Positions 27,737 to 44,599 are shown, counted from the first letter of the stretch. The stretch is 64,000 nucleotides of DNA from Bacteroidales bacterium (GCA_017651425.1 JAGCCZ010000019.1:336-64335), one strand, 5' to 3'. The notes: generated by a model from the sequence alone, not told the origin. Program-made: numbers and translations.

Positions 27737-28354
27737 TCACAGTGTTCCGATGGTTTTCTGCAATGCCTCGAGAAACCGGGCCGCGTCGCCGCCGTCCATC
27801 TGCACGTGGTGGAACTGGAACGAGACCGGCAGCTTGGTCTTGAACCACTCTTTGCGATACTTGCCCCACATCACCATCGGGTTGAGGAACTTGTCGGTGT
27901 ATTGGTTGACGATGCAGTCGAGCTCGGTCTGGATCATCGCGGAGGTGCCGACAATCATATAGCCGTCGAGGAAGCTGCTCGCGCACTCTTCCGCCACCTT
28001 GGTGGTCAGCGCGATGTAGTCGCGGTTGAACTGCTGCAGGTCGTCGGAGAAGGGGATGTCGCAGGAGTTGATGCCGCCTTTGCGGTTGCGCACCACCACA
28101 TTGACGGCGATCTGGTCGTACTGAAACAGCTTTCCGTTCTCCGGCAGCAGATGCAGCTCTTCCGTCTCGGTAGCCGTCTTGCCGATGCACCAGCACATCA
28201 GCGTGTTGAACTTTACGCCGGTCTTCTTACTGATTTTCAGCAGATTGTTAACATTCATTGTCTTCACCAATGTCACCATCGGCATCGGTGCGCTCATCCA
28301 CATCTCAAAGGCGTACGCCCGCTTGGTATCCCGGGGGTTGATTTCTTGTTTCAT
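27737..28354 (-). CDS. Chloramphenicol O-acetyltransferase (type A CAT) family protein
   Basis: 205 aa from ATG 28354 (MKQEINPRDTKRAYAFEMW...). FHHVQMDGGDAARF matches the catalytic-His region HHxxxDGxHxxxF of CAT. The track ORF is artificially extended through the repeat. Confidence 0.75.
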   Translation of the reverse strand: MKQEINPRDTKRAYAFEMWMSAPMPMVTLVKTMNVNNLLKISKKTGVKFNTLMCWCIGKTATETEELHLLPENGKLFQYDQIAVNVVVRNRKGGINSCDIPFSDDLQQFNRDYIALTTKVAEECASSFLDGYMIVGTSAMIQTELDCIVNQYTDKFLNPMVMWGKYRKEWFKTKLPVSFQFHHVQMDGGDAARFLEALQKTIGTL

Positions 28355-28376
28355 TATGATGATAAGATTGAGGTGG

Positions 28377-28384
28377 CAAAAGTA
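28377..28384 (-). promoter_or_regulatory. Bacteroidetes-type -7 promoter box for the CAT-family gene
   Basis: TACTTTTG on the minus strand, 23 nt upstream of ATG 28354 and 13 nt from repeat R1. Confidence 0.5.
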
Positions 28385-28397
28385 AACAAAAAAACAT

Positions 28398-28463
28398 CTC
28401 CCGCAGATTACGCAGAATGACGCCGATCTTTTTCTGCGCGAGTCTGCGAGTTCTGCGGGAAAA
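28398..28463 (+). repeat. Triple-hexamer palindromic repeat, copy R1 (orientation A)
   Basis: ctcccgcagattacgcagaatgacgccgatctttttctgcgcgagtctgcgagttctgcgggaaaa. It ends 1 nt before the GNAT stop codon, and the CAT -7 box lies 13 nt to its left. Confidence 0.9.
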
Positions 28464-28464
28464 T

Positions 28465-29010
28465 CTATAACAACTCCAGCCGCAGCACCCGGATTGGTCT
28501 GCCCGCGCCCTGGTACTGCGTCTCGTCGATGCAGGTTTCGCCGGTGGGCACAAAGCCGCACTTCTCCATCACGCGGCCCGAGGCGGGGTTGTCGATGAAG
28601 TGGCCGCTGACGAGGGACTTGATCTCCGTGGTCTTGCAGATGTGGTCCAGCATCAGTCGCAGCGCTTCGGTGCAGATGCCCTGGTTCCAGTAGGGCTTGG
28701 CCACCCAGTAGCCGCAGATGGGCTCGTTTTCGCGGGCGGGAAGTTTGCAGTCGCAGGAGGGACCGTAGCCCATCGCGCCGATGGCCTCGCCGGTCTCCTT
28801 CAACTCAATGGCCCACGTACATAGCGCGTCATTGAACACCGTGCGGATAATCTCCAGGCTTTCCTCCACGCTTTGGTGCGGCGCCCATCCCGCGCGCGGA
28901 CCCACATCAGGGTCGGAGGCATATTTGTAAAGCGACTCCGCATCGCTCTCACGCCACGGACGCAGCAGGATTCGGTCGGTATGGAGGAGGTTGTTATCTT
29001 TTTTATTCAT
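28465..29010 (-). CDS. GNAT family N-acetyltransferase (RimJ/RimL-like)
   Basis: 181 aa. RILLRPWRESDAESLY...YWVAKPYWNQGICTEA is a typical GNAT pattern. Confidence 0.8.
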   Translation of the reverse strand: MNKKDNNLLHTDRILLRPWRESDAESLYKYASDPDVGPRAGWAPHQSVEESLEIIRTVFNDALCTWAIELKETGEAIGAMGYGPSCDCKLPARENEPICGYWVAKPYWNQGICTEALRLMLDHICKTTEIKSLVSGHFIDNPASGRVMEKCGFVPTGETCIDETQYQGAGRPIRVLRLELL

Positions 29011-29031
29011 TGTTAATGTTTTAACAAGTTG

Positions 29032-29421
29032 TCAGACCAAACAAACGCGATGCAACTCTTCGGAGAATCGGATAATCCCCTCTTGTATTTTCCGCACAGT
29101 TTTGACGGAAGGACGGCTTTTGCCAGTTGCATAGTGACTGAGCTGGTGACGGTTGATACCAGTGATGGTTTGCAGGTCAGCAAGGTTTAGCTTCCCGTTT
29201 ATATACTGCAAAAAACTGGCGGTGTCAAACTTGTACTCAAAGGTCATTTCCGGCAGCGAAGGGAGCATCTCCTTGGCTTCATTGTATGAGTTCTGAAGAT
29301 CTGACATCGTTTCCTCCACTGTTTTTCCCATCCCTATGAATCCGATTTTATGCTTGTGCTGCGGAACGGCGGTGAAAGTTCCGTCGTCGTTTCTCTCTAT
29401 AATAACAGTAATGTTTTCCAT
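29032..29421 (-). CDS. HicB-like antitoxin / HTH protein (no HicA partner seen)
   Basis: 129 aa. The N-terminal VIIERNDDGTFTAVPQ looks like a HicB fold. The C-terminal LADLQTITGINRHQLSHYATGKSRPS is an HTH. Confidence 0.6.
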   Translation of the reverse strand: MENITVIIERNDDGTFTAVPQHKHKIGFIGMGKTVEETMSDLQNSYNEAKEMLPSLPEMTFEYKFDTASFLQYINGKLNLADLQTITGINRHQLSHYATGKSRPSVKTVRKIQEGIIRFSEELHRVCLV

Positions 29422-29542
29422 ACTCTATGGATTGATTTAACATTGCAAAAATATACAAATGTATATTGTTTTAAATACACGAGTGGATATTTTTATCAAC
29501 AGATTTATAAACAGCAAGAGGTGCCACTATACTACAAGAAAA

Positions 29543-29608
29543 CATCCGCAGATTACGCAGAATGACGCAGACTTAGTTATGCGTTTATCAGCGAGTTCTG
29601 TGAGAAAA
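29543..29608 (+). repeat. Triple-hexamer palindromic repeat, copy R2 (orientation A, partly decayed)
   Basis: catccgcagattacgcagaatgacgcagacttagttatgcgtttatcagcgagttctgtgagaaaa. Lies 3 nt from the FMN reductase stop. Confidence 0.8.
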
Positions 29609-29611
29609 ACA

Positions 29612-30163
29612 TTATCCCAAATATTCCACGAACGCCTCCGCCTGGGCCTTCAGTGCGGCACGCTGCTCGTCGGTGAGGATCATGCGGCCCTCCGTCCATG
29701 CCTCTGCGTTGAGGGTGACACCCGTCTGTGGTTCAGCCATCACGTCAGCCTTGATGAAGGTGAGCAGTTCGGTGAGCTTCTCGCGGCACTTGCCCGTGGC
29801 CATCTGACCGCCGGCGCCGCTCAACGCCACCTTCTTGCCGTTCATGACCGTCGGCGTGGCGAAATCGTATGCCACCAAGGGGCGGGAAAGCCAATCCAGC
29901 ACGTTTTTCAGATGTCCGGGATAGCTGAAGTTGTATTCGGGGGTGAAAATCCAAAGGCCGTCGGCGTTGGCCACCGTCTCACGCAGCTTGGCCACCGCTG
30001 AGGGCGCGGGATATTCGATGTCCTGGTTGATGAACGGCAAGTCCGTGTAGTCCAAATAGGTGACTTCGGCAATGCCTGCCAAGTTCTTTTCCGCCTCTTG
30101 GGCGAGCTGCCGGTTGAAGGAGTCTTTTCTCAGCGAACCGACGATGAAGAGGATTTTTTTCAT
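29612..30163 (-). CDS. NAD(P)H-dependent FMN reductase family oxidoreductase
   Basis: 183 aa. MKKILFIVGSLRKDSFNRQLA and TPEYNFSYPG are typical of the family. Confidence 0.8.
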   Translation of the reverse strand: MKKILFIVGSLRKDSFNRQLAQEAEKNLAGIAEVTYLDYTDLPFINQDIEYPAPSAVAKLRETVANADGLWIFTPEYNFSYPGHLKNVLDWLSRPLVAYDFATPTVMNGKKVALSGAGGQMATGKCREKLTELLTFIKADVMAEPQTGVTLNAEAWTEGRMILTDEQRAALKAQAEAFVEYLG

Positions 30164-30188
30164 AAATGTGGATATTTGTATTTTTTAA

Positions 30189-30599
30189 TTAATTGTCAGA
30201 CTTTTTCCTCAAACTCACGATGGCCGCCACAACCTCCACCAAGCCGAGCACAAAATAGAGGTTGCTGATGGCATTGAAGCCCCATACCCACCATTCGAGG
30301 ACAATCCAGAGCATCAGGATGATGCCGCAGACGAGGACCGCCCACTGCGCGAGCGGATGCTTCTTGAAGAGCAGATACACTGCTGCTAATTGGGTAACAC
30401 CGTTCAGGAACAGCAGCACAAAGCCCGACGGGATGAAGTCGCGGAAGAAGATATCCGGCCAAGGCATTTTTGCACGCAGCATCTCTAACAGTGGCTCGCC
30501 GCCCCACGCTACACCCGTAGGGTCAATCCACATCATCACGGCACCGCCAATTGCGCCGATACCGATGAAAAGGGTCAGGATTTTTTCGAGTTTGAGCAT
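30189..30599 (-). CDS. Membrane protein, hypothetical (4 TM)
   Basis: 136-aa hydrophobic ORF. Confidence 0.5.
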   Translation of the reverse strand: MLKLEKILTLFIGIGAIGGAVMMWIDPTGVAWGGEPLLEMLRAKMPWPDIFFRDFIPSGFVLLFLNGVTQLAAVYLLFKKHPLAQWAVLVCGIILMLWIVLEWWVWGFNAISNLYFVLGLVEVVAAIVSLRKKSDN

Positions 30600-30645
30600 A
30601 CAATTATGGATTAATTATACAATGTAATATCAGTGTTAATTGTTG

Positions 30646-30873
30646 TCAGCGTTTTCGTTTTGTTTTCATTAGGCAGATAAACAGAATGACAATCAGCACA
30701 TTGCTGACAATAAGAGAGATGAAGAGACTGTAAATGTGATGATAGTAATTGGATTCGGTCAGACAATAGTTGCCATCAACTAATGCGGCAATGCACATTA
30801 GGACTTCTAAAACGACGATGGCGATAAAAGCTAAAACTGAGAAGATTATTAATACTTTTCTCTTGTTATTCAT
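30646..30873 (-). CDS. Small membrane protein, hypothetical
   Basis: 75 aa from ATG 30873 (MNNKRKVLIIFSVLAFIAIVV...) with two TM helices. Confidence 0.4.
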   Translation of the reverse strand: MNNKRKVLIIFSVLAFIAIVVLEVLMCIAALVDGNYCLTESNYYHHIYSLFISLIVSNVLIVILFICLMKTKRKR

Positions 30874-31040
30874 ACCATTATTATTTCGAACGGCAAAAGT
30901 ACACAAAATGTGTGGATGCTTTTCATTTGGTGAAAAAATGAAATAGCATTCATTTTACGTTATATCTTTTATAAAAGAAATTTGCCGTAAATAATCATCT
31001 TTATATTTTTGGAAGATAAAAATCGCCGTGAATAAAAATT

Positions 31041-31104
31041 TTCCCGCAAACTGCGCAGAATAACGCAGACCTTTTTCTGCGTATATCAGCGAATTCTGCG
31101 GGAG
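31041..31104 (+). repeat. Triple-hexamer palindromic repeat, copy R3 (orientation A)
   Basis: ttcccgcaaactgcgcagaataacgcagacctttttctgcgtatatcagcgaattctgcgggag. Lies 3 nt from the stop of ORF 31108. Confidence 0.9.
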
Positions 31105-31107
31105 GAA

Positions 31108-31620
31108 TTATTCGCGGAACTCACTGATTTTATGATAGGCGTATCCAGACACCGTATCGAATACGAGCAAGTGATCGAACGGGGTGCGGATACAACGGTA
31201 ATATTGCAGATGGTCTTCCGGAACGACTTGCCATTCAATGAACACGGCGAAATATGCTTGTGGCAACGAACCGAATTTTTGTTCAATCTCTTCCCTACTG
31301 CAAGGCTTTAGTGTGCTGTCTGGGACAATATCCGAGTAACAACAAGGTTTTGACATAAGTGCAGACTCCACTTCGGCAGGTGAAGCTTTATATCGGAACC
31401 AGTAATTGTAAAGCGAACCATTTTCTCTTGCCCCAACACACTCGCGGTCAGCCAATTCCGGATACAAATCACCAATGTTGTATTCCTGTGCATTCCCATT
31501 CCACCAATTTGCCCATTTATGCTTAATCTTTGAGCAAGAAACCGATGCGAAAATGAAAAAGCATCCGAGGACTGCAACAACTACAAATTGTATAATCCGA
31601 TTATTTCTCATAGCAATCAT
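31108..31620 (-). CDS. Secreted or lipoprotein hypothetical protein
   Basis: 170 aa with N-terminal FVVVAVLGCFFIFASVSCSK. The stop is 3 nt from repeat copy R3. Confidence 0.5.
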   Translation of the reverse strand: MIAMRNNRIIQFVVVAVLGCFFIFASVSCSKIKHKWANWWNGNAQEYNIGDLYPELADRECVGARENGSLYNYWFRYKASPAEVESALMSKPCCYSDIVPDSTLKPCSREEIEQKFGSLPQAYFAVFIEWQVVPEDHLQYYRCIRTPFDHLLVFDTVSGYAYHKISEFRE

Positions 31621-31640
31621 CCAGCTTTTGATGTAATAAA

Positions 31641-31704
31641 TGCCCGCAAACTGTGCAGAATAACGCAGACCTTTTTCTGCGCAAGTCTGCGAGTTCCGCG
31701 GGAG
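31641..31704 (+). repeat. Triple-hexamer palindromic repeat, copy R4 (orientation A)
   Basis: tgcccgcaaactgtgcagaataacgcagacctttttctgcgcaagtctgcgagttccgcgggag. Lies 9 nt from the stop of ORF 31714 and 20 nt from the start codon at 31620. Confidence 0.9.
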
Positions 31705-31713
31705 AATAATCCG

Positions 31714-32211
31714 TTAACAAAACACCCACGCATACACCCCCGCCCCGATCAGGCACGGAATCAGTCCGATGAGCATTCCCCACAGCGACTGCACGAAGTG
31801 GTACTTTTTCTGATGGTAGGCCGCGTCCATGTGTTCGGTGCCGGGGAGGCGCACGGACTTCATATTGGCGAAGAGCACCCAGTCGAGAAAGAAGCAGTCG
31901 TACCAGTCGATGACGAACCAGATGCCGTAGCTCAGCGCGAACGCCGACCAGAAGTTATAGGCGCTGGCCAGCTTCATCAGCCCGAGCATCACAGCCAGGG
32001 TAACGAGCAGCGCAAAGCCCTTCTTAAGCAGCACGGTCTTGGTGAAGAACTTCGACGGCACGCGCTCGTGTGTCTTGAAGTACTCCTCTTGGATGTCCTC
32101 CGGATAGTCGTGAATCCACCACACGGGGTTCTTCACGAGCGGGATCAGAATCATGGCCGTGAACGCGGCGGTCATGACGAGGGTTTCGATGATGATGATG
32201 GTCCAGTTCAT
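31714..32211 (-). CDS. Membrane protein, hypothetical
   Basis: 165 aa, about 4 TM. The stop is 9 nt from repeat copy R4. Confidence 0.5.
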   Translation of the reverse strand: MNWTIIIIETLVMTAAFTAMILIPLVKNPVWWIHDYPEDIQEEYFKTHERVPSKFFTKTVLLKKGFALLVTLAVMLGLMKLASAYNFWSAFALSYGIWFVIDWYDCFFLDWVLFANMKSVRLPGTEHMDAAYHQKKYHFVQSLWGMLIGLIPCLIGAGVYAWVFC

Positions 32212-32243
32212 AGTTTTAGTGATCAGTGAACAGTGAATAGTGA

Positions 32244-33440: not shown

Positions 33441-33512
33441 AAAGCACTTTTTTCCGGCGGCAAAAGTACGCAAAATGCGGGGATGTGTTTTCATTTGGCG
33501 GAAAAATATTAT

Positions 33513-33577
33513 CTCCCGCAGAACTCGCAGATTTACGCAGAAAAAAGTCTGCGTTAGTCTGCGAAATCTGCGGGAAA
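33513..33577 (-). repeat. Triple-hexamer palindromic repeat, copy R5 (orientation B, the only inverted full copy)
   Basis: ctcccgcagaactcgcagatttacgcagaaaaaagtctgcgttagtctgcgaaatctgcgggaaa. Sits in the divergent promoter region between 33440 (-) and 33618 (+). Confidence 0.9.
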
Positions 33578-33585
33578 TATTTTTG

Positions 33586-33593
33586 TATTTTTG
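33586..33593 (+). promoter_or_regulatory. Bacteroidetes-type -7 promoter box (TAnnTTTG) for the M28 peptidase gene
   Basis: TATTTTTG lies 25 nt upstream of ATG 33618 and 8 nt after the end of repeat R5. Confidence 0.5.
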
Positions 33594-33617
33594 CCGCTGA
33601 ATTTAATACCCGAAGCA

Positions 33618-34892: not shown

Positions 34893-34900
34893 TATTTAGC

Positions 34901-34964
34901 TTCCCGCAGATTTCGCAGATTAACGCAGACTTTTTTCTGCGGGTTCTGCGAGTTCAGCGGGAAT
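34901..34964 (+). repeat. Triple-hexamer palindromic repeat, copy R6 (orientation A)
   Basis: ttcccgcagatttcgcagattaacgcagacttttttctgcgggttctgcgagttcagcgggaat. Starts 8 nt after the M28 peptidase stop. Confidence 0.9.
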
Positions 34965-35067
34965 AACATCTCCAGTAGATCTCACAAACTGGTGCTAAAA
35001 AGCACTAACCTCAATGTGTATCTTGCACAATGTGGGATATGACACTTCACTCTGGAATTCGCATCAC

Positions 35068-35514: not shown

Positions 35515-35593
35515 GCTTTATCTTGAATGAAACAGCAGATGTTTTTTGTCTCCGCGTATCACACGTATATGCACGTGATGTTTTTGCAAGATA

Positions 35594-36204: not shown

Positions 36205-36229
36205 AAAATAACGAACCACTATGTCAAAG
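36205..36229 (+). repeat. 25-bp perfect direct repeat, left copy (duplicate of the promoter-proximal leader and first 3 codons of gene 37219)
   Basis: aaaataacgaaccactatgtcaaag is identical to 37203-37227. Confidence 0.9.
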
Positions 36230-36256
36230 CGCAAGTCTGCGAGTTCCGGGGGAAAA
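36230..36256 (+). repeat. Right half of the palindromic repeat, copy R7 (orientation A)
   Basis: cgcaagtctgcgagttccgggggaaaa. The left arm is missing. It begins directly after the 25-bp duplicated segment 36205-36229. Confidence 0.75.
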
Positions 36257-36294
36257 TATTTTTCCTATTTTCGCGCCCATAAAAACATCCCGTT

Positions 36295-37113: not shown

Positions 37114-37117
37114 TTCT

Positions 37118-37181
37118 CTCCCGCAGATCTCGCAGAACATCGCAAATCTTTTTTCTGCGCAAATCAGCGAGTTCAGCGGGA
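37118..37181 (+). repeat. Triple-hexamer palindromic repeat, copy R8 (orientation A)
   Basis: ctcccgcagatctcgcagaacatcgcaaatcttttttctgcgcaaatcagcgagttcagcggga. Starts 4 nt after the 4Fe-4S protein stop. Confidence 0.9.
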
Positions 37182-37188
37182 TAATTTT

Positions 37189-37196
37189 TATTTTTG
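37189..37196 (+). promoter_or_regulatory. Bacteroidetes-type -7 promoter box for lipoprotein gene 37219
   Basis: TATTTTTG lies 23 nt upstream of the ATG and 7 nt after the end of repeat R8. Confidence 0.5.
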
Positions 37197-37202
37197 CACT
37201 CC

Positions 37203-37227
37203 AAAATAACGAACCACTATGTCAAAG
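37203..37227 (+). repeat. 25-bp perfect direct repeat, right copy (contains the ATG of the lipoprotein gene at 37219)
   Basis: aaaataacgaaccactatgtcaaag is identical to 36205-36229, 998 bp upstream. Confidence 0.9.
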
Positions 37228-38406
37228 AGAATCTTAAGCATTCTGTTTGTAGCACTGTCGGCAACGCTCTTCTTGACTGCCTGCAAGGTCGGCGGGAAGA
37301 CGACGACAGTCACGATGGAGGAGTTTCGGAACACCGACCTTTCGCGGATGATTATACCGGACTCCATCCTGACAAACCCCGACTACTGTTCCCAAAAGGA
37401 TGAGTTTATGTTCATCGAAAAAACCTCCGAGTTCGAGCCCATCGGGTATCGAGGCCGTGACTTCCAACGGTTCTACATCCATTACGACAGCGTCCGTTTT
37501 ATGGGCAATGGAGTCTATAAGGTGGAGGGACGCACCCGCTACCGCGACACTATCCGGCTTTTCTCCGGGACCATCACGCTGGACTCTATGCGCCTGAACA
37601 AAGGGAAGCACCTACCGTCAACGGGTAAATTCGGGAAGTTGTGCGGGCATTTCCAGTTCGATGAGGACGAATTTTCCGGCGGCGGGGTCCTGACGGGCAA
37701 AATGTGGATTGGCTTCGCAAAAATTAACGGGCGGTTCTACTACGATGCTTTTAAGTTAGGTTTGGCCGACGGTTACAGTAACCGCCAGTACGAGGGTGTG
37801 TGGACTTCGAAAGGCCTCACCCGGATGGAGAAATGCAACTGGGGCGATTTCCGGATACCCGATTCAAGAGGATTAGGGTCGGGTGAGGCTGAATTTATTT
37901 CCAGAGATTCGTGTCTCGACCGCGGATGGCGTATTTATACTTACGGTTGGGCCGAGAGTGATTCTTTACAGGCTATATATCAGGCGGATATGCAATGGTT
38001 TACCCACGAGGAAGACTATGTCATTCCCTATTCCGGACGGCTGCAGCGGTATCTGAAAGAGTACGGCTACGGAAAGAGTCAGCCCTCGGCAAAAGTGGTT
38101 TTGGGGACTATCCCGGTGACCTATGACGAATTTGAGATTTGGGTGTTGTTGCAAGGTGGCAAATTATGGACTACCACAAGCCAATACGCGCACGCCGACA
38201 GTGCAGGCATTATGTTTGCCTATATGCGTATGGGGCAATTGAGATTCCCAGACGGGGATTCCGATGCGATGTGGGAAGCTTTTTTTGATGATTACATCGT
38301 GTTGCAAAAGGAGCATCCTGCCCTTTTCGACCAATACCGCAAACAGTTGTCCGAAAAATGGAACCAAGCATTTGATGGCTGGAAGAAAGAGATGTACGGG
38401 GAGTAG
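37219..38406 (+). CDS. Lipoprotein, hypothetical, paralogue of 22863..24176
   Basis: 395 aa with lipobox LFLTAC. Shares FQRFYIHYD, DGYSNRQY and CNWGDFRIPDS blocks with 22863..24176. Confidence 0.55.
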   Translation: MSKRILSILFVALSATLFLTACKVGGKTTTVTMEEFRNTDLSRMIIPDSILTNPDYCSQKDEFMFIEKTSEFEPIGYRGRDFQRFYIHYDSVRFMGNGVYKVEGRTRYRDTIRLFSGTITLDSMRLNKGKHLPSTGKFGKLCGHFQFDEDEFSGGGVLTGKMWIGFAKINGRFYYDAFKLGLADGYSNRQYEGVWTSKGLTRMEKCNWGDFRIPDSRGLGSGEAEFISRDSCLDRGWRIYTYGWAESDSLQAIYQADMQWFTHEEDYVIPYSGRLQRYLKEYGYGKSQPSAKVVLGTIPVTYDEFEIWVLLQGGKLWTTTSQYAHADSAGIMFAYMRMGQLRFPDGDSDAMWEAFFDDYIVLQKEHPALFDQYRKQLSEKWNQAFDGWKKEMYGE

Positions 38407-38433
38407 GGACACAGTGCATTGCGTCTCCACAAT

Positions 38434-38464
38434 TTTCTGCGCATCTCAGCGTGTTATGCATAAA
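38434..38464 (+). repeat. Decayed right half of the palindromic repeat, copy R9
   Basis: ttttctgcgcatctcagcgtgttatgcataaa resembles TTTTCTGCGCAAATCAGCGAGTTC.GCGGGAAA. Starts 27 nt after the lipoprotein stop. Confidence 0.5.
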
Positions 38465-38485
38465 TGTGGAAGTCCTTAACCGTAT

Positions 38486-39823
38486 TTATTCGGTGACACT
38501 TCTTAACAAAGTCATCCATTTGTCCATCCATCCCACCAATGGGGCGGGACTGCTGAGCATTCCGCTGTTGTATTGGAAGTTAAGCATTGAGAAACGCATT
38601 CGATACCGAGGACTATATTTTTTCGTATAAACAGCGAGGCTGTTGCCGCTGATGTTGTTTTCGGCTTTGACCTCCACGGGTATGATTTCATCATCCCATT
38701 GGATGACAAATTCCACTTCAGCCGTTCCGGGGGATGTCCAATAATAGGGTTTCTGATCGTCCAGAAGAGGCATGATGGACTGAAGCACTGCGTTTTCAGC
38801 TATGGCTCCTTTGAACTCTGTATAGTTAGCGATAGGATCTGTGACAACCGTTGCGGGCAGATGTGCCAAACGGCGGAGCAAGCCGCAGTCGCAGGCATAA
38901 ACCTTGAAAGCATCTGTTTCCTCGTATGCAGAAAGCGGCATTCCAGGCTTGCTGATACTGAATATGCGATGAATTATCCCCGCATCTTCCAACCACAAGA
39001 GGGCGTCTTCGTAGTCTTTGGAACGTGCGCCCGTTTTGATGACCTTCCATACGAACTTCCGGTTTTCCTTCGATAGTTGGGCTGGCAGTGAGTGCCAGAC
39101 GGCATGAATGCGCGGAATCTCGCGTGGTTCAGCGTATTTGGCAAAGTCGAGTTCATAAAGGTCAAGAATGCCTTGTAAAGTCGATTCCACCTCACCAATG
39201 CCCTTGTCTTCAAGCAGTGACACAATGGCTTCCGGCATGCCTCCAGACACTTGGTAGCGCCTGTATTCTGTACGTAACTTGTTCATGATGATTTCCGGCA
39301 AATGGCGGATTTCATCCAATGAATTGATATACTCGTATGTACGCACATCGCTGGCACGCAGGAATTCCTTGAAGGTGACAGGGAACATGTTGATGATTCT
39401 CACCTTACCGACAGGCACCGTCATCCTGCGCTTTTTCACCGCCACACCCAGCAACGAACCTGCCGCAATGATGTGATACAGGGGTGCTTCATCACAGAAA
39501 TACTTCAAACTGTTAAATGCCTCTTCGCATTCCTGTATCTCATCGAAAATCACCAGTGTCTCGCCGGCAATGATGGGCTGTTCGCAATAGAGCGTCAACT
39601 CCTTGATCAGGCGTTTAGGGTCCTTCGTGATCTCAAACAACGACTTCAGTTCCGGTTGCCGGTCGAAATCAAACTTCACACAATACTTGAAACACTCCTT
39701 GCCGAATGTCTCCATAGCCCACGTCTTACCAATTTGGCGTGCGCCTTTCAACAGAATCGGTTTCCTATCAGGAGCCTCTTTCCATGCTTTGAATTGGTTG
39801 ATGATATCTCTTTCTATTTTCAT
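38486..39823 (-). CDS. AAA-family ATPase with C-terminal DUF4143-like domain
   Basis: Start at MKIERDIINQF. Walker A is GARQIGKT and Walker B is VIFDEIQ. Confidence 0.75.
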   Translation of the reverse strand: MKIERDIINQFKAWKEAPDRKPILLKGARQIGKTWAMETFGKECFKYCVKFDFDRQPELKSLFEITKDPKRLIKELTLYCEQPIIAGETLVIFDEIQECEEAFNSLKYFCDEAPLYHIIAAGSLLGVAVKKRRMTVPVGKVRIINMFPVTFKEFLRASDVRTYEYINSLDEIRHLPEIIMNKLRTEYRRYQVSGGMPEAIVSLLEDKGIGEVESTLQGILDLYELDFAKYAEPREIPRIHAVWHSLPAQLSKENRKFVWKVIKTGARSKDYEDALLWLEDAGIIHRIFSISKPGMPLSAYEETDAFKVYACDCGLLRRLAHLPATVVTDPIANYTEFKGAIAENAVLQSIMPLLDDQKPYYWTSPGTAEVEFVIQWDDEIIPVEVKAENNISGNSLAVYTKKYSPRYRMRFSMLNFQYNSGMLSSPAPLVGWMDKWMTLLRSVTE

Positions 39824-39935
39824 ATAACACATCGGAAAGTTCGATTTTGTGTATCACCGTTACACTTTTCCTAACTTTCGGCTGCAAAAATACAAAAATA
39901 TTCATTCACCTTTTCTATTGTTCTTTAGAAAAAAA

Positions 39936-40066
39936 TCCCTGCGGACTGTACAAAAACACAGAACTTCTCCTACATGATGCAAATTAGTCATCTTCTGCGG
40001 ACACTCAATACTTTACAGAACATCGCAGATCTTTTTCCTGCGCAAATCAGCGGGTTACGTAGGGTT
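39936..40066 (+). repeat. Decayed composite of the palindromic repeat, copy R10
   Basis: tccctgcggactgtacaaaaacacaga (left-arm-like) ... ttctgcggacactcaatactttacagaacatcgcagatctttttcctgcgcaaatcagcgggttacgtaggg. The right part aligns well to copy R8. Ends 5 nt before the WG-repeat gene stop. Confidence 0.6.
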
Positions 40067-40071
40067 TACCA

Positions 40072-40575
40072 TCAGTATCTATCCAGAATATTTCCCTGCT
40101 TGTCAAGTTCGAACCAATGACCACGACCTTTCATCACCTGCACTGTGCCGAATTGGAATCGGCCCACGAGATCGTATTTTAACGGAATGACTACATTCCC
40201 CGTTGTGTCAATATAGCCCCATTTCTTCCGCAGACATACTCCCGCTCTTTCTTCATAAAAATAAGACACATTTTTGAATTGTGGTTCGATGACTATGATT
40301 GCATTTGTGTCGGCGAATCCCCATTTGTTCCCAACACGTACTGGTATCAAGCCGTCTTTACCCCACCAGGGATATTCTTCGTATGCCCTAAACCATTCAA
40401 TGGATGAGTCCGAAACACGGCATTTTTCCTGAAAAGCTTCTATCCAAGCCTCTTTTGTCATCTGATCCAATTGTCCATCCTTATTTTGCGCCAAACAACT
40501 TACGGAGAACATCATCGCAAGAGTGCATACTAAAAACAGTGTTTTAGTTCCCAAAGTGTTTCTTTTAAATGCCAT
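40072..40575 (-). CDS. Secreted WG-repeat (KWG) protein
   Basis: Start chosen at MAFKRNTLGTKTLFLVCTLAMMFSVSCLAQ. Contains NKWGFAD and KKWGYID WG repeats. Confidence 0.6.
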   Translation of the reverse strand: MAFKRNTLGTKTLFLVCTLAMMFSVSCLAQNKDGQLDQMTKEAWIEAFQEKCRVSDSSIEWFRAYEEYPWWGKDGLIPVRVGNKWGFADTNAIIVIEPQFKNVSYFYEERAGVCLRKKWGYIDTTGNVVIPLKYDLVGRFQFGTVQVMKGRGHWFELDKQGNILDRY

Positions 40576-40681
40576 ATTTCCAAACATCCAAACGAGCGAT
40601 TCTTTAAGCAATATCTTATAAAACAACGCAAAAATATAAAATCCTGCTTAATAAAACTCAAATTTTTTTTACGCAAATTCT

Positions 40682-40745
40682 CTCCCGCAGACTTCGCAGA
40701 CTGACGCAGATCTTTTTTCTGCGTAAATCAGCGGGTTCTTCGGGC
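40682..40745 (+). repeat. Triple-hexamer palindromic repeat, copy R11 (orientation A)
   Basis: ctcccgcagacttcgcagactgacgcagatcttttttctgcgtaaatcagcgggttcttcgggc. Lies 6 nt from the ICMT-like gene stop. Confidence 0.9.
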
Positions 40746-40751
40746 ATCCCA

Positions 40752-41423
40752 CTACCACACAAACGGAATCACTTTGTACCGAACTTTCTGTTTATACTCC
40801 GTGTATCCTTCAAGTCCCTGCTCCAAGACGGCCTCCTCGTTACGGATGCGCTTGGCGATGATGGGGATGTAGAGCAGCATGATCAGAAACGACCACGGGG
40901 AAGCCAACACCATGGGCATAGCGAGGAAAAGTACCAATGTGGCGGCGTACATCGGATGCCGAACAATGCTGTACAGTCCCGTGTCCACCACTTTCTGATG
41001 CTCCTGCACCTCGATGGTGCGCGACAGCCAGACGTTTTCGCGGAGCACCTCGGCGTAGAGTGCGTAGCCGATCAGGAAAACCACGGAGGCCGCATATACC
41101 GCCCAATCCGGCAGCAGGCACCATTGGAAACGATAGTTGAGGCCAGCCATTACGAACATCGCGAGGAACATTAGGCCACTTAACGCGACCACCCACTTCT
41201 GTTCCCCCTGCTTCTCCTTGGCATCCAATCGTTTGCACAACAGCTCGGGCTGGCGGAGCAACAGCACCACGCCCGCAATGAGCATCGGCCCGAACAGCAA
41301 GGCGATGAAAAGCCATCCCTGCCAGTAGGCGAAGGTGCCCGCCGGCAAAAACAGCAACGCACCCACCAGCACTAATCCGGCGAGGAACTTTGTCAGGGCT
41401 TGGAAAAAGAGTTTTGAGGTCAT
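40752..41423 (-). CDS. Isoprenylcysteine carboxyl methyltransferase (ICMT)/phospholipid methyltransferase family membrane protein
   Basis: 223 aa, multi-TM. TGLYSIVRHPMY is the family signature. Confidence 0.75.
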   Translation of the reverse strand: MTSKLFFQALTKFLAGLVLVGALLFLPAGTFAYWQGWLFIALLFGPMLIAGVVLLLRQPELLCKRLDAKEKQGEQKWVVALSGLMFLAMFVMAGLNYRFQWCLLPDWAVYAASVVFLIGYALYAEVLRENVWLSRTIEVQEHQKVVDTGLYSIVRHPMYAATLVLFLAMPMVLASPWSFLIMLLYIPIIAKRIRNEEAVLEQGLEGYTEYKQKVRYKVIPFVW

Positions 41424-41441
41424 ATCTTATTTGTTTTGTTT

Positions 41442-41506
41442 CTCCCGCAGACTGCGCAGACTGACGCAGACTGTTTTCAGCGTAAATCGGCGAGTTCTGC
41501 TGGAAA
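41442..41506 (+). repeat. Triple-hexamer palindromic repeat, copy R12 (orientation A)
   Basis: ctcccgcagactgcgcagactgacgcagactgttttcagcgtaaatcggcgagttctgctggaaaa. Lies 13 nt from the Fic stop and 18 nt from the ICMT-like start codon. Confidence 0.9.
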
Positions 41507-41519
41507 ACATATTTCCCGT

Positions 41520-42548
41520 TTATTTCAACACCTCCCAATGTCCGCTCTTGTTGCTGCCGACGCGAATGATATAGCCTGCTGTCTTCAGCTCGCCGAGTCG
41601 GCGCTTGACGGTGGCTTCAGACACGCCTAACAGAGCACCGTACGCCGCATAATTGAGACTGTTGTCTTTCAACACAGCCTGATAGAGCCGCTCCGTTATC
41701 GGGTCAGCGAACCGTTTTATCGGGTCAGAAAGCGGTTTTATCGGGTCAGCGGACTGGGATTCCTTGAACTCCTCAATCTCTTTGCGGATGTTGCGGGTGT
41801 GCTGTTCCAACATAAACCGACGGAATGGTTCTGTACTTTCCTGTTCCCTTGAATCAACCAACGACTGGATGTATTCTGCTTTGTCAGCTTTGTCGATTTT
41901 CACGGGCACCAGTCCGAATTCATATTGCAGATGATTCATCACCAATCTGGACATGCGTCCGTTGCCATCTACCCGGGGATGAATGGTCACCAATTGATAA
42001 TGGGCATCGAACGTCAACAGATATTTGGCAATCAAATCGTTAGAATTGACAAGCTGCCGTCTCATTTCGTTCAACTGCAGACAGAACTCCTGCAATTTTT
42101 CTGGAACTTTCCGATAATCCATGTAGGAGCGTCCACCGATTCCAGCGGTGACGCTGACTAAGCGCAAGTCCCCTTTGGATGCATCAAATGAACCTTGCAC
42201 TGTATTGTACGCACTTCCAGTGTTTTTCATAACCAGTGCGGACATCGTTTTCAGCATTTCCACGGAAAAATCTGTATGTTGTTCGGCAAGCCGCATCGAA
42301 TGTTCGTAAGCCGCTTTCAGGTCAAGGTTCATCAGCTGTTCCTGCATACTTCGTCCCTTCGCGGAAATACCCTCATCAAACAGCAGCTGGTTCTCAATTT
42401 CCGTGACAGTACTCCCTTCGATAGCCGTGGAATGGGTAATAATGGAATACAGATAGAACTTTTTGTAGTCTCTCTGTTCCGCAATTCCCAACGACTGGTA
42501 CTCATTGAGTGCGTCAAGCAATTGTTGTTCCTGTTTCGTGACCATCAC
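41520..42548 (-). CDS. Fic family protein with a C-terminal winged-helix domain
   Basis: 342 aa. HPRVDGNGRMSR matches the Fic motif HxFx(D/E)GNGRxxR except R in place of F. The C-terminal region is VKRRLGELKTAGYIIRVG. Confidence 0.8.
   Translation of the reverse strand: MMVTKQEQQLLDALNEYQSLGIAEQRDYKKFYLYSIITHSTAIEGSTVTEIENQLLFDEGISAKGRSMQEQLMNLDLKAAYEHSMRLAEQHTDFSVEMLKTMSALVMKNTGSAYNTVQGSFDASKGDLRLVSVTAGIGGRSYMDYRKVPEKLQEFCLQLNEMRRQLVNSNDLIAKYLLTFDAHYQLVTIHPRVDGNGRMSRLVMNHLQYEFGLVPVKIDKADKAEYIQSLVDSREQESTEPFRRFMLEQHTRNIRKEIEEFKESQSADPIKPLSDPIKRFADPITERLYQAVLKDNSLNYAAYGALLGVSEATVKRRLGELKTAGYIIRVGSNKSGHWEVLK
41696..41755. repeat. 21-bp tandem repeat x3 inside the Fic gene
   Basis: TTATCGGGTCAG recurs at 41696, 41717 and 41738. 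It encodes DPIK/DPIK/DPIT heptads (SADPIKPLSDPIKRFADPITE) on the minus strand. Confidence 0.8.
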
Positions 42549-42564
42549 AGCTGTTTTTCAGCGG

Positions 42565-42572
42565 CAAAAGTA
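42565..42572 (-). promoter_or_regulatory. Bacteroidetes-type -7 promoter box for the Fic gene
   Basis: TACTTTTG on the minus strand, 17 nt upstream of ATG 42548 and 18 nt from repeat R13. Confidence 0.5.
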
Positions 42573-42590
42573 CTATTTTTCCTGATATTT

Positions 42591-42655
42591 CTCCCGCAGA
42601 CTGCGCAGACTGACGCAGACTTTTTCAGCGTAAATCGGCGAGGTCTGCGGGAAAA
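42591..42655 (+). repeat. Triple-hexamer palindromic repeat, copy R13 (orientation A)
   Basis: ctcccgcagactgcgcagactgacgcagactttttcagcgtaaatcggcgaggtctgcgggaaaa. Differs from R12 by one indel and two substitutions. Lies 4 nt from the flavodoxin stop. Confidence 0.9.
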
Positions 42656-42659
42656 TGAA

Positions 42660-43502
42660 CTACCGTATCACCTTCGTGAACACCGGCGCTTTGTCTTTCT
42701 CCACCGTCACATAGACCTGGATCTCGTCGGTGGGCATGTCCGGCTTGTCCTCGCGGGGAAGGTTGACGGCGGTGAAGAGGTATTCCGTGCCGTCGGGCAG
42801 GGAGCGCACCGCCACCGTCTTGGCCTTGGCATTCAGCATCTGATAGCCATCGACAGCCGCGTCGAAGATGGCCGCTTCCTCTTCGCTAACCTCGTGTTGC
42901 GCAGGGAATTCCTCCAACTGTATGAATTCACCTTCAAGGAATCCGTTGGCTTTCAGGAAATTGTCAACTTCTTTGGGCATCGCCTCCATGCGGGCGGCGC
43001 GGACACCGTAGCCGGGCAGAATCTCCGCATTGGGCTCAGCTGACGCCAAGTCCTTCGCACTGGACTCCAGACCGCCGCTGCCGAAGGTGCAGAACGGCAC
43101 AATCTTCTTGCCACTCAAATCGTTGCTGAGAAGGAACTTCTGCACTGGCGGCACGTATGTGCCGAACCAGATGGGATAGCCGATAAAGATGATGTCATAA
43201 TCAGCAATGTTGGATTTGATCGGCTGAATGTCGGGGATGTTCCCTTGTTCATGTTCCTGCTTGCAGCGCTCAATGGTGGCTTGGAAGTCGCCATCGTATG
43301 GGTTCACCGCCACGATCTCTTCGATGTCGGCACCGAGCTTGCCGGAGATCTCCTCGGCCACGGCTTTGGTGTTGCCGGTTTGGGAATAATAGAGGACGAG
43401 CATCTTGGGGGCTTCCTCTTTCGGGGTTTCTTTCTTGGAACCGCAGGAGACGGCGGTCAGCGTCACGACTGCGAGAAGCAGTATCAATTTGGGACTTTTC
43501 AT
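42660..43502 (-). CDS. Flavodoxin-domain lipoprotein with an extra C-terminal domain
   Basis: 280 aa with lipobox AVSCGS. LVLYYSQTGNTKAVAEEI is a flavodoxin FMN-binding N-terminus. Confidence 0.65.
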   Translation of the reverse strand: MKSPKLILLLAVVTLTAVSCGSKKETPKEEAPKMLVLYYSQTGNTKAVAEEISGKLGADIEEIVAVNPYDGDFQATIERCKQEHEQGNIPDIQPIKSNIADYDIIFIGYPIWFGTYVPPVQKFLLSNDLSGKKIVPFCTFGSGGLESSAKDLASAEPNAEILPGYGVRAARMEAMPKEVDNFLKANGFLEGEFIQLEEFPAQHEVSEEEAAIFDAAVDGYQMLNAKAKTVAVRSLPDGTEYLFTAVNLPREDKPDMPTDEIQVYVTVEKDKAPVFTKVIR

Positions 43503-43552
43503 AGGATTGTTCTTTTATTTCAAGATGCAAAAATACTATTTTCTCGGATATT

Positions 43553-43617
43553 ATCCCGCAGACTACGCAGAATGACGCAGAAATAATGTCTGCGTTAATC
43601 AGCGGTTTCGGCGGGAG
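43553..43617 (+). repeat. Triple-hexamer palindromic repeat, copy R14 (orientation A)
   Basis: atcccgcagactacgcagaatgacgcagaaataatgtctgcgttaatcagcggtttcggcgggag. Lies 1 nt from the DMT transporter stop. Confidence 0.85.
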
Positions 43618-43618
43618 A

Positions 43619-44599
43619 CTATACGAAGAACAAGCATACACCCACCACACTGATGACGGCGCCGATGACCTCGCGGACGGTCACCTTCTGGTGGAAGAGG
43701 ATGGCCGCCGGGGCGATGATGAGGATGGGCGTGAGGGCGAAGATGGTCTGTGCGATGCCCGCGGAGGTGTACATAGTGGCCAAGAGCGACGCGCTGACCC
43801 CGATGAACGGACCGAAGATGGTGGAGGCGAACACGCACCACATGGCTTTGCGGTCGCGGACGGCGCTGCGCAGCTTCGCCAAGCCTTCTTTGCTGAACAG
43901 CATCAACGAGAGGAAGAAGCCCGCCAACCCGATGTAGGCGCGGATGGTGGTGGCGGCGAAGGGCACGCAGATGCTGACCGGCAACGGCAGCAACGCGCCC
44001 TCGAAGACCGCGTCTTGGGAGATGTTGAGCGCTGTGAGCGCCGCGTCATAATGTTGGAGCCCCATCTTGCTGAGCACCAGCCCGAAACCTTGGCAGATAC
44101 CGGCCATCGCCGCATAGAAGATACCCTTCGCGGGCAGCTTGAAACGGATACCGTGATGCTCCGAATCATCGTTTTTCGAGAGAATTGACAGGGCAATGCC
44201 GCTCAGAGTGACGACCATTCCGAGGATGGCGACCGGGCGCATCTGCTCGCCGAGGAGAATTCGTCCCGTGAGCGCTGCCGTGGGGGCCGAAAGGGTCATG
44301 AAGAGCTGCCCGAAGCGCGACCCGATATGGATGTAGCCCTGCATCAGGCAGTAGTCGCCGATGACGTAGCCAACCACGCCCGAGAGCAGCAGCCACCCCC
44401 ACGTGCCGCCGTCGGCGTAGCGGGGGTAAGGGACGCCCATAATCAGCCAGAGGGTGAGGACGAGGAAACACAGCGACATCGTCATCCGGATCGTGTTGAA
44501 AGGCAGCGAGCCCATACGCTTCGAGCCCACCTCCGCAAAAAGGGCGGTGGCAGTCCACGAAAGGGCGACGAAAAGGGAAATTAATTCACCGAGAAACAT
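43619..44599 (-). CDS. DMT superfamily (EamA-like) transporter
   Basis: About 10 TM in two EamA-like halves. First ATG at 44599 (the track ORF uses a TTG at 44614). Confidence 0.75.
   Translation of the reverse strand: MFLGELISLFVALSWTATALFAEVGSKRMGSLPFNTIRMTMSLCFLVLTLWLIMGVPYPRYADGGTWGWLLLSGVVGYVIGDYCLMQGYIHIGSRFGQLFMTLSAPTAALTGRILLGEQMRPVAILGMVVTLSGIALSILSKNDDSEHHGIRFKLPAKGIFYAAMAGICQGFGLVLSKMGLQHYDAALTALNISQDAVFEGALLPLPVSICVPFAATTIRAYIGLAGFFLSLMLFSKEGLAKLRSAVRDRKAMWCVFASTIFGPFIGVSASLLATMYTSAGIAQTIFALTPILIIAPAAILFHQKVTVREVIGAVISVVGVCLFFV

Follow-up and report, generated by a model that had tools for sequence, protein, structure and literature searches.

REP/BIME elements and REPINs of the Proteobacteria are short extragenic imperfect palindromes, mobilised by RAYT, that occur in many copies after the stop codons at operon ends. 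They are transcribed as 3′ hairpins, serve as substrates for rearrangement, and include cases in which the repeats also flank a single-copy nuclease or transposase gene. MITEs, among them the Correia elements of Neisseria and integron-mobilising MITE pairs, are non-coding sequences of less than 100 bp with terminal inverted repeats. In integrons, sedentary chromosomal integrons and CALINs, an ORF is followed by attC, a 3′ imperfect palindrome of 60-70 nt with helical boxes, unpaired spacers and recurrent mismatched stem bases; the cargo consists of accessory and toxin-antitoxin genes, and array order varies among strains. Finally, 23S rRNA IVS elements with S23p or GxxExxY-type ORFs comprise a small ORF bracketed by long-stem inverted repeats, and are selfish elements with a patchy spread across phyla. 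Apart from mobilisation by RAYT, the repeat described here, R, shares the features listed for REP, MITE and attC sequences, its transcription as a 3′ hairpin being probable. It may resemble the IVS elements in its spread, whereas R copies lack an ORF and follow protein-coding genes.

R comes from a rumen Bacteroidales bacterium, where its hairpin follows almost every transcription unit of an accessory gene island spanning 17 kb. All copies and arms have the same build, three CGCAGA boxes, a loop and three TCTGCG boxes, with the boxes of each arm spaced by about one helical turn. Arms measure 27-33 nt, full hairpins 59-61 nt from helix to helix, and the whole element, which carries no ORF, about 66-72 nt. 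In the window (the entire 64-kb stretch analysed), 11 copies are full and one is decayed, and there are also four single arms (Table 1). An nhmmer model found the full and decayed copies at 28.4-43.6 kb and single arms at 55393 and 63634; further single arms were seen at 36223 and 38433. The arm at 55393 corresponds to the half copy that had been noted outside the cluster near ORF 55385. A 27-nt arm pattern (up to 3 mismatches) matched 22 arms in the window and none in 100 shuffles. Fourteen of the 16 copies or arms fall within 16 kb, and 10 of the 11 full copies point the same way, R5 being the only one flipped. The predicted DNA folds of R1 and R5 have energies of -18.7 kcal/mol (z -4.0) and -24.5 kcal/mol (z -8.4), respectively.

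Table 1. Positions of R copies and arms in the 64-kb window.
Feature	Coordinates	Strand	Setting
R1, full hairpin	28400..28459	+	5 nt past GNAT stop, 45 nt ahead of CAT start
R2, full hairpin	29545..29604	+	7 nt past FMN-reductase stop
R3, full hairpin	31043..31102	+	5 nt past stop of ORF 31108-31620
R4, full hairpin	31643..31702	+	11 nt past stop of ORF 31714-32211 (o165)
R5, full hairpin	33515..33574	-	between divergent acyltransferase and M28 gene starts
R6, full hairpin	34903..34961	+	10 nt past M28 stop
Right arm only	36223..36256		just upstream of Fer4 promoter
R7, full hairpin	37120..37180	+	6 nt past Fer4 stop
Right arm only	38433..38466		between o395 stop and AAA14 stop; one AAA14-unit border
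Decayed copy	40010..40059	+	between AAA14 promoter and WG stop; other AAA14-unit border
R10, full hairpin	40684..40744	+	7 nt past ICMT stop
R12, full hairpin	41444..41503	+	between Fic stop and ICMT start
R13, full hairpin	42593..42651	+	8 nt past flavodoxin stop
R14, full hairpin	43555..43615	+	3 nt past EamA stop
Left arm only	55393..55428	+	9 nt past stop of ORF 53772-55385; outside cluster
Single arm	63634..63672	-	outside cluster

Measured to the outer helix, 10 of the 11 full copies begin 3-16 nt past a stop codon. The initial annotation had given gaps of 1-13 nt from a slightly wider boundary, so that its placement of the repeat stands while its distances are revised. It had also described each gene as being followed by the repeat, missing the exception of R5, which does not follow a stop codon, and had overlooked that R5 is flipped. 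Copies after the plus-strand M28 and Fer4 genes keep the plus orientation; the repeat is thus not flipped with the gene strand, as had been stated. Two copies lie within operons and one between divergent promoters, and none was found inside HTH129-GNAT, o75-o136-FMNred, AcylT3-o165 or YafQ-DinJ. In four long spacers, the spacing from the stop codon is tighter than avoidance of promoters alone explains.

One explanation for this placement is that R copies act as terminators or stabilise mRNA as 3′ hairpins and were selected where they stand, their repetition reflecting a common function rather than mobility. They do sit at the 3′ ends of transcription units, other hairpins fill the same position in relatives, and among assembled RNA contigs, the only RNA data used, depth drops about ten-fold across R7 and one contig stops at the outer hairpin base. 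We nevertheless judge this explanation improbable. A consistent U-tract is lacking, the tails differing among copies, and a terminator scan, with 30 predictions against 19.9 ± 5.3 in shuffles (not clearly higher), flagged only sub-hairpins and no copy as a whole. The intra-operon and divergent-promoter copies, as well as the insertion polymorphism, cross-phylum identity of boxes and absence of covariation described below, also speak against it. The initial annotation had proposed that a repeat found after core genes genome-wide would be a plain terminator family; this objection does not apply, because no copy occurs in the first 27 kb of the window, which holds about 25 genes.

A second possibility is that the box arrays are operators of a DNA-binding regulator controlling downstream promoters. 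Each side carries three helically spaced boxes, and several downstream genes have R some 20 nt ahead of their -7 promoter box. A strict TAnnTTTG box within 90 nt upstream was found for about half of the genes, and for 6-7 of about 11 repeat-bounded units, so the earlier statement that most units carry their own promoter is roughly right. R also precedes genes that have no promoter, however, the downstream genes are unrelated in function, strains differ by the gain and loss of copies, and the same boxes adjoin unrelated genes in unrelated phyla. An operator role is therefore very improbable.

The two genes previously singled out as lacking room for a promoter, ICMT after R12 and o170 after R4, both stand behind copies that relatives lack, and in those relatives the flanking genes abut with spacers of 9 or 11 nt. 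R12 is an 87-nt insertion in the Fic-ICMT operon spacer when compared with the empty site of relative L129, where the junction reads TAA, 9 nt, ATG. The same empty site occurs in DNA contigs of three diverged-strain runs (X6, X7, X9) and in an RNA contig of X26. R12 is flanked by 5-bp CATAT direct repeats, and 13 nt of the insertion are unexplained filler. R13, which lies 1.1 kb away and has an orthologue in L129 (16985-17052), shares 97% identity with R12. A second gain without a gene is seen when L132 is compared with L181; no target duplication was seen in this pair, leaving that of R12, with its filler, as the only clean one. R4 is missing in L181, which has an 11-nt operon spacer instead. 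R5 provides a further comparison of filled and empty sites, being missing in L127 and L128, while L132 and L134 carry at its site a hairpin of the same build made of CACGTAT boxes. Thus R inserts alone, without a gene, into operon spacers.

Among 80 related loci, R is confined to 9, all from the closest relatives, which together hold 28 copies; L127 and L128 have none despite 89% identity in M28. An alignment of R copies has 90% of its cells paired with nearly invariant boxes and 0 compensatory pairs, and R is conserved in sequence rather than in structure. Across many phyla, at least 120 stretches carry the arm pattern itself, some 40 of them with paired arms, against a chance expectation that we estimate at about 4.

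Among close relatives gene order differs and the junctions fall within R, at the left arm, the loop or the right arm. R copies are therefore substrates for recombination. Presence/absence and order differences among close strains break inside the repeats, which was one of the checks suggested at the outset, and hybrid and half copies sit at the borders of indels. The arm upstream of Fer4, for instance, is the same as the right arm of the hairpin in the M28-R-Fer4 arrangement of L125, and the o148-YafQ-DinJ block separates this Fer4 arm from the right arm of R6. Gene-plus-repeat units also recur elsewhere, the other point suggested for checking. R4 and o165 occur together in three differing left-hand contexts, EamA plus R is another recurring unit (L141 has an orthologous R14 copy after EamA, and L129 an 11-mer tandem array at that position instead), and the AAA14 unit has moved, lying inside a split R7 in L212 and downstream of o395 in the window.

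Such recurring units, together with the clustering and uniform orientation of R, are what would be expected if R were the recombination site of a dedicated, undescribed integron-like capture system with a recombinase encoded elsewhere. The AAA14 unit of L212 lies exactly within R7 between two hybrid hairpins, as insertion of a circle at the site would yield, and in L077, from another phylum, genes are singly enclosed by arms. The cargo is also like that of chromosomal integrons; Pfam confirmed the gene names CAT, GNAT, FMN reductase, M28, 4Fe-4S, WG repeat, ICMT, Fic, flavodoxin, EamA and YafQ. Even so, a capture system is unlikely. R inserts without any gene, the position of the junction within R varies, R orientation is independent of gene strand and most units have their own promoter. 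Furthermore, junctions without R are broken as often: among repeat-bearing relatives 16 of 16 junctions without R and 19 of 27 with R are broken, and in repeat-free relatives, which show the same mosaic gene order, the numbers are 42 of 46 and 42 of 44 for the without- and with-repeat classes, respectively.

In agreement with the reported lack of IntI, a Pfam scan of the 60 ORFs of the window revealed no recombinase or transposase domain, and neither Phage_integrase nor another recombinase domain was present in these or in 30 ORFs of related loci; no recombinase was found near R across the window or at eight related loci. RYYYAAC/GTTRRRY cores, also reported as lacking, are not visible in an alignment of 22 copies, the ends of which read TTTCCCGCAGA ... 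TCTGCGGGAAA without GTT or AAC cores. We therefore rejected the integron reading, since these loci contain no recombinase and R no attC cores, orientation ignores the gene strand and the stems are without compensatory change. R differs from integron sites in lacking R''/R' cores, in conserving sequence instead of structure, in its gene-independent orientation, in units with their own promoters, in moving without a gene and in its variable crossover point. The checks suggested in the initial annotation thus gave mixed results for its proposal of gene-cassette capture sites: breaks inside the repeats and recurring units speak for it, and the gene-less insertion, variable crossovers, lack of a nearby recombinase and lack of covariation speak against it. 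Its other proposal, a REP/BIME-like element accumulated in an accessory island, comes closest to the evidence.

We consider it probable that R is a non-coding mobile palindromic repeat, MITE/REP-like, whose copies reshuffle neighbouring genes by recombination. The family is apparently undescribed and apparently tolerated at operon ends. R is MITE-like in its insertion polymorphism among strains, its entry into operons and the ability of pairs to bracket genes, the one 5-bp target duplication being a putative further likeness. Unlike MITEs, it has no identified parent IS carrying a transposase, no autonomous element with a known transposase having been found; it consists of essentially just two arms, its copies are clustered and co-oriented, and its one clean insertion has filler DNA. 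The clustering and uniform orientation are unlike those of a freely hopping MITE, and local copying or recombination is required. Unlike REP sequences, which are species-specific, R has boxes common to many phyla. Its arm is built of three repeated 6-nt boxes, GTAG is absent from the R alignment, no RAYT (Y1 HUH transposase) was seen in the 64 kb of this genome or in flanks of about 10 kb from relatives, and the candidate partner of R is instead a PD-(D/E)XK nuclease. Unrelated GTAG(A/G)GACG hairpins are present in relatives.

In the mechanism that we propose for this mobile repeat, the two arms would form a 60-nt hairpin or cruciform. In the first step, seen at the filled and empty sites, the hairpin alone inserts into short intergenic spacers, mostly copied from a nearby R. 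Copies would then survive where they are harmless, just past the stop codon that closes a transcription unit and directly ahead of the next promoter, where they would be transcribed as a 3′ hairpin. Several same-oriented copies in one region next recombine, a step visible in the rearranged loci, to produce deletion, insertion and permutation of the genes between them, and varying crossover points leave hybrid and half copies and a cassette-like array without an integrase. Less certainly, the enzyme recognising the boxes may be a GxxExxY protein, the gene of which is typically flanked by box arrays of this kind in many phyla, and by R in the closest relatives.

GxxExxY is a small 125-aa protein with a Cas4/RecB-like PD-(D/E)XK nuclease fold. 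Its AF2 model (pLDDT 94) matches Cas4 and lambda exonuclease, and its invariant residues are D, ExK and QxxxY. To our knowledge it is not a known transposase. The 64-kb window contains no GxxExxY gene, and in close relatives the gene looks like just one more gene followed by R. R flanks the GxxExxY genes of L124, L132 and L212, and CGCAGA or CGCAAAG arms enclose those of L095, L110, L077 and L081. Among plasmid-borne GxxExxY genes, tandem-box arrays were seen by eye on one or both flanks in 8 of 8, and the two flanks are significantly repeated in 5 of 8. These flanks are inverted in 2 and direct in 3, and thus there is no single architecture. Together these associations make GxxExxY a candidate partner enzyme of the box arrays.

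Whether triple-box hairpins and GxxExxY constitute an undescribed class of mobile element that spans phyla, with box-specific recognition, spread and cassette-making, is a more tentative idea, which we hold to be possible but doubtful. If it is correct, a Cas4/RecB-like PD-(D/E)XK enzyme, specific for its own boxes (CGCAGA, CACAGAG, CGCGGAT and others), would recognise the arrays and disperse hairpins without an ORF to gene ends. Cutting or recombining at these hairpins would then make ordinary genes exchangeable, an integron-like result achieved without a tyrosine recombinase.

Between 28.4 and 43.6 kb the window contains 11 full copies and one decayed copy of a palindromic hairpin, R, in the places at which the initial annotation had put repeats. 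An arm pattern allowing up to three mismatches (≤3) matched 22 times in the window versus 0 times in shuffled sequence. The hairpin is 59-61 nt long, with the consensus TTTCCCGCAGA-nnn-CGCAGA-nnnn-CGCAGA, a loop of 5-7 nt, and TCTGCG-nnnn-TC(T/A)GCG-nnn-TCTGCGGGAAA. The best-supported conclusion of our study is that R is a mobile, MITE/REP-like triple-box hairpin. The source of the window is an uncultured rumen Bacteroidales, and identical contigs are known from ruminant gut metagenomes; an exact-protein look-up with the GNAT protein matched the same strain only and was uninformative. Rfam gave no match for the whole window at gathering thresholds and chance-level matches only for 27-45 kb with E-value thresholds. 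No account of the hairpin family or of a gene-repeat association was found in Rfam or the literature searched and, as far as those sources go, both are apparently undescribed.

Five of six copies folded as single-stranded DNA formed the expected three-helix hairpin. Fold energies ranged from -15 to -24.5 kcal/mol (z -4 to -8.4), with a weaker fold for R12 (-12 kcal/mol, z -1.4). The left arm is systematically more perfect than the right, and an A/A mismatch recurs at the fourth box position of the middle helix in 13 of 22 copies. This asymmetry gives R an orientation, which is plus for ten full window copies and minus for R5. Across 22 copies 90% of cells pair and no pair has changed on both sides, in a covariation test of low power, given how young and alike the copies are. 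Conservation in R lies in the box sequence rather than in the pairing, an indication of a protein that recognises the boxes and not of an RNA fold under selection.

The repeats lie close behind stop codons, as previously described, since 10 of the 11 full hairpins begin 3-16 nt past a stop; the exception, R5, has a divergent start codon on either side. The copies sit at the ends of transcription units, and none was found inside HTH129-GNAT, o75-o136-FMNred, AcylT3-o165 or YafQ-DinJ (Pfam agreed with the earlier gene names). A TAnnTTTG promoter had been proposed for most units, and the strict Bacteroidetes -7 box was present upstream of about half of the genes. The two genes said to have no room for a promoter do follow R12 and R4, and both of these copies are missing from relatives. 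We infer that R persists at operon ends. Such a placement would suit a plain terminator family, as had been suggested. However, a terminator scan flagged only sub-hairpins, and the tails vary among copies rather than being uniform, so that R is not a canonical terminator; the reading also fails on the distribution of R and on its insertion polymorphism.

Relatives of the window were collected by a scan with the M28 peptidase, which yielded 80 rumen contigs with 69-95% protein identity. The hairpin model found 28 copies of R in nine of these 80. Eight of the nine loci have M28 identities of at least 85%, and the ninth, L141 (82%), carries one copy. The same model found no R at the other M28 loci, including L127 and L128 at 89% identity. 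The restriction of R to nine close loci indicates a recent, lineage-restricted expansion of the element.

Gains of R without a gene are seen at two junctions. In the related locus L129, Fic-TAA is followed after 9 nt by ATG-ICMT, with no R, whereas the window has 87 extra bases at this junction, bordered by a direct repeat of CATAT. The junction is likewise empty in DNA contigs of three further runs from diverged strains (X6, X7 and X9), joined from 40930 (40928 in X9) to 41508 with AGAGTTTTGTAGT in X6 and X7 or TAGGAGTATTGTGGT in X9 between the two sides, and in an RNA contig. Its presence in several sources indicates that the empty state is widespread and probably ancestral. The copy at this junction, R12, is 97% identical to R13, which lies 1.1 kb away and has an orthologue in L129; R12 is therefore a local copy, and 13 nt of the insertion match neither source nor target. 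The second case concerns o165, an ORF whose next gene follows after 11 nt in L181 and after about 90 nt, including R, in L132; no clean target duplication was found at this L132/L181 site. In the AcylT3-M28 spacer, the hairpin is absent from L127 and L128, R5 is present in the window, L124 and L126, and in L132 and L134 the site is occupied by a hairpin that shares this build but has CACGTAT-type boxes. Furthermore, the most similar window copies are neighbours (R12/R13, R3/R4, R1/R2/R14, and R7 with the decayed copy), which fits local copying or conversion and not the arrival of every gene together with a site of its own. Together these results show that R spreads locally.

The surroundings of M28 are a gene mosaic in all lineages, as judged from gene maps. 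The same single genes, among them YafQ/DinJ, HTH129, FMN reductase, EamA, Fer4, CAT and FlK, reappear in changed order at 85-100% identity, and nucleotide homology between relatives ends at gene borders. Each window gene junction was scored as kept or broken in each relative. In R-bearing relatives, 19 of 27 junctions with R and 16 of 16 without R were broken; in R-free relatives the counts were 42 of 44 and 42 of 46. The mosaic therefore belongs to the region and not to R. Three relatives have an erythromycin-esterase family gene between M28 and o165; in L124 and L132 it separates o165 from the acyltransferase, two genes that are 32 nt apart in the window, and the L124 gene has no repeat on either side.

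Recombination among R copies was evident at several joints. The unit of o165 and R4 was seen with three different left neighbours, and its L132 copy shares the right arm with L129 and has a different left arm. The lone window arm at 36223 is the right arm of the M28-R-Fer4 hairpin of L125, which places the o148-YafQ-DinJ block between two direct right arms. The window order Fer4, R7, o395, arm, AAA14, decayed R, WG, R10, ICMT becomes, in L212, Fer4, R7 left arm joined to the AAA14-side arm, truncated AAA14, decayed R joined to the R7 right arm, o395, the arm fused to the R10 right arm, and ICMT. The same joint occurs in a DNA contig of run X8, and further metagenome-contig joints begin and end inside repeats, including one from 37136 to 42614 in two runs; joint positions taken from contig alignments are approximate. 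Crossovers fall at differing positions: in the left arm past box 2, in the loop or within the right arm. Such variation speaks for homology-driven or break-induced recombination among scattered copies and against fixed site-specific exchange. Short identical stretches can yield assembly chimeras, so we relied mainly on long JGI and ENA contigs. A loss of Fic by R12 x R13 recombination was set aside and the series left out of the evidence, since the X9 joint shares 34 nt on both sides, near the assembler word size, and may be an artefact; the long contig L216 lacks Fic and has an 89-aa ORF in its place. Overall our results show that recombination among R copies gives the array its cassette-like variability.

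The initial annotation had likened the array to integron cassettes, and strain differences do break inside the repeats. The integron-like reading nevertheless fails four defining tests. The absence of a recombinase was confirmed, with no recombinase or transposase domain in the 60 window ORFs scanned, and no recombinase was found in the scan of the related loci. AAA_14 + DUF4143 ATPase genes recur beside R, and the window example forms a unit with a half copy at one border and the decayed copy at the other.

The boxes of R are not confined to this lineage. At least 120 stretches of a species-representative genome collection contain the string CCGCAGA-N3-CGCAGA-N4-CGCAGA, against our estimate of about 4 expected by chance for 19 fixed bases. 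The matches listed include Verrucomicrobiota, Planctomycetota, Acidobacteriota, Chloroflexota, Gamma-, Delta- and Zetaproteobacteria, Bacteroidota, Spirochaetota, cyanobacteria, one archaeal Methanocellaceae MAG and the isolates Geothrix fuzhouensis and Oligosphaera ethanolica. At about 40 loci among those listed the arms pair, either in tight hairpins or around loops of 50-190 nt; others have about 360-510 nt between arms, and at still others the arms are back-to-back, single or tandem. Several genomes have more than one contig with matches, so the box family is dispersed within genomes. Arms lie within 100 nt downstream of stops in 38% of cases versus 11% of random positions (ORF calling was crude), and they are placed far less tightly than the window copies. 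Neighbour proteins of the 120 loci were clustered; the largest cluster, response regulators and histidine kinases, was judged to be background from abundant families.

Individual loci of this set show further arrangements. In L077 each gene of an array stands between a left and a right arm, the units including a 461-aa ORF, a 279-aa ORF and a GxxExxY gene, and neighbours among the first three units are back-to-back with 22 nt between them. Two ABC-ATPase ORFs of L019 run into an arm and end in ...SADYAD* (TCC GCA GAT TAC GCA GAT TAA), so that the repeat supplies the C-terminus and stop codon. Hairpins or arms also occur head-to-tail at three loci.

A candidate partner enzyme emerged from the loci with about 400 nt between arms, where the enclosed ORF is a GxxExxY protein (TIGR04256 / PF13366 PDDEXK_3) in L077, L095 and L110; CGCAAAG-type arms surround the gene in L081. 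In 1 Mb of rumen loci there are two GxxExxY genes, both beside M28 with R arms at their flanks (L124, L132). A nearly identical copy (P0007) is found at this position in many samples; the window has o148-YafQ-DinJ there instead. The 64-kb window has no GxxExxY gene, and in this lineage GxxExxY looks like any gene with R behind it. In a sample not selected by repeat (eight plasmid- or chromid-borne genes from eight genera), tandem 6-10-nt box arrays, including CACAGAG, CGCGGAT, CGCGAAG and ACAAATC, were seen by eye beside the ORF in all eight, and the two flanks were significantly repeated in five, two inverted and three direct. Several of the eight lie between housekeeping genes; those of L210 and L208 do so in the same orientation as their neighbours, which fits the behaviour of a small selfish insertion. 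The AlphaFold model of GxxExxY is confident (pLDDT 94) and the invariant residues are D56, E77-x-K79 and Q91-xxx-Y95. A Holliday-junction or cruciform resolvase was considered and rejected, as the best PDB matches of the model were instead Cas4 SSO0001, lambda exonuclease and RecB-type nucleases; a PDB sequence search gave no match. A single search retrieved more than 8000 relatives; the one survey that came to light describes a family of unknown function with multiple inter-phylum transfers (PMC3424549). A GxxExxY nuclease is a plausible candidate for the enzyme of R, as a lead and not a demonstration.

Other box elements were observed in the relatives. The flavodoxin-EamA gap of L129 holds a tandem array exactly in the place of R14, which suggests that box arrays can expand. 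Repeat-free relatives have R-like builds straight after stops, with 3-4 tandem boxes of 7-10 nt often followed by their inverse (GTTTCAG x4 / CTGAAAC x4, CACGTAT-type, GTTAAAA, CTGAAAA, ATTGAAA, CACGAAT x3); they occur in L136, in the AcylT3-M28 spacer of L132 and L134, and past the M28 stop in L139, L137, L148, L194 and L199. At the position of R6, just past the M28 stop, L126, L127, L128 and L135 have GTAG(A/G)GACG...CGTC(C/T)CTAC hairpins, sharing the GTAG start typical of REP elements. Within the window, an SbcD-like and an SbcC-like gene lie 22 kb from the hairpin array; the SbcCD nuclease pair cuts DNA hairpins and palindromes. The Cupin_5/ORF paralogues have 74-87% DNA identity and are 34-37 kb apart.

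Coordinates of features in the window and in the compared loci
Locus	Position	Feature
Window	36223, 38433, 55393, 63634	Single arms of R
Window	1184-2419	SbcD-like gene (Metallophos)
Window	2435-5845	SbcC-like gene (AAA_23 / SbcC Walker B)
Window	10899-10961	27-nt inverted repeat GGGGGGAGGCAATATTTTTGTATTTTT / AAAAATACAAAAATATGAGCAACCCCC centred on promoter-like TATTTTTG box; unrelated to R
Window	13552-14865, 16385-17191, 50614-51924	Paralogous pairs, Cupin_5 gene and ~270-aa ORF without Pfam family
Window	38486-39832	AAA_14 + DUF4143 ATPase gene
L129	7260-8465	AAA_14 + DUF4143 ATPase gene
L124	5463-6668	AAA_14 + DUF4143 ATPase gene
L129	19700-19930	~17 tandem copies of 11-mer ACAACTCCGAT
L136	5734-5803	R-like build
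L124	7383-8675	Erythromycin-esterase family gene
L131	1319-2602	Erythromycin-esterase family gene
L132	1943-3247	Erythromycin-esterase family gene
L077 (Zetaproteobacteria MAG)	489-5650	Array of arm-enclosed genes
L019 (Gammaproteobacteria MAG)	1739-2860, 2965-4602	ABC-ATPase ORFs
L107 (Saprospiraceae MAG)	4320-4906	Head-to-tail hairpins/arms, period ~137 nt
L108	2472-2618	Head-to-tail hairpins/arms, period ~39 nt
L113	3827-4195	Head-to-tail hairpins/arms, period ~65 nt
L210 (Sphingomonas parapaucimobilis plasmid)	377-805	GxxExxY gene between fabD and fabG
L208 (Bacteroides finegoldii plasmid)	380-754	GxxExxY gene between radA and FAD-dependent protein gene

If R is indeed such a mobile hairpin, a strain-variable, cassette-like gene array in gut Bacteroidales would be explained without an integron, and a small mobile palindrome would seed portable homology at operon ends. 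The box architecture spans Planctomycetota, Verrucomicrobiota, Acidobacteriota, Chloroflexota, Proteobacteria, Spirochaetota and at least one archaeal MAG. Such a class of element would therefore be of general interest: for genome annotation, as ORFs run into arms; for assembly, given the risk of repeat-induced chimeras; and for work on accessory-gene turnover, including that of CAT, erythromycin esterase and other resistance-type genes in the rumen. Finally, the link to R would place the very large GxxExxY / PDDEXK_3 family in a genomic context for the first time and so suggest a function that can be tested.
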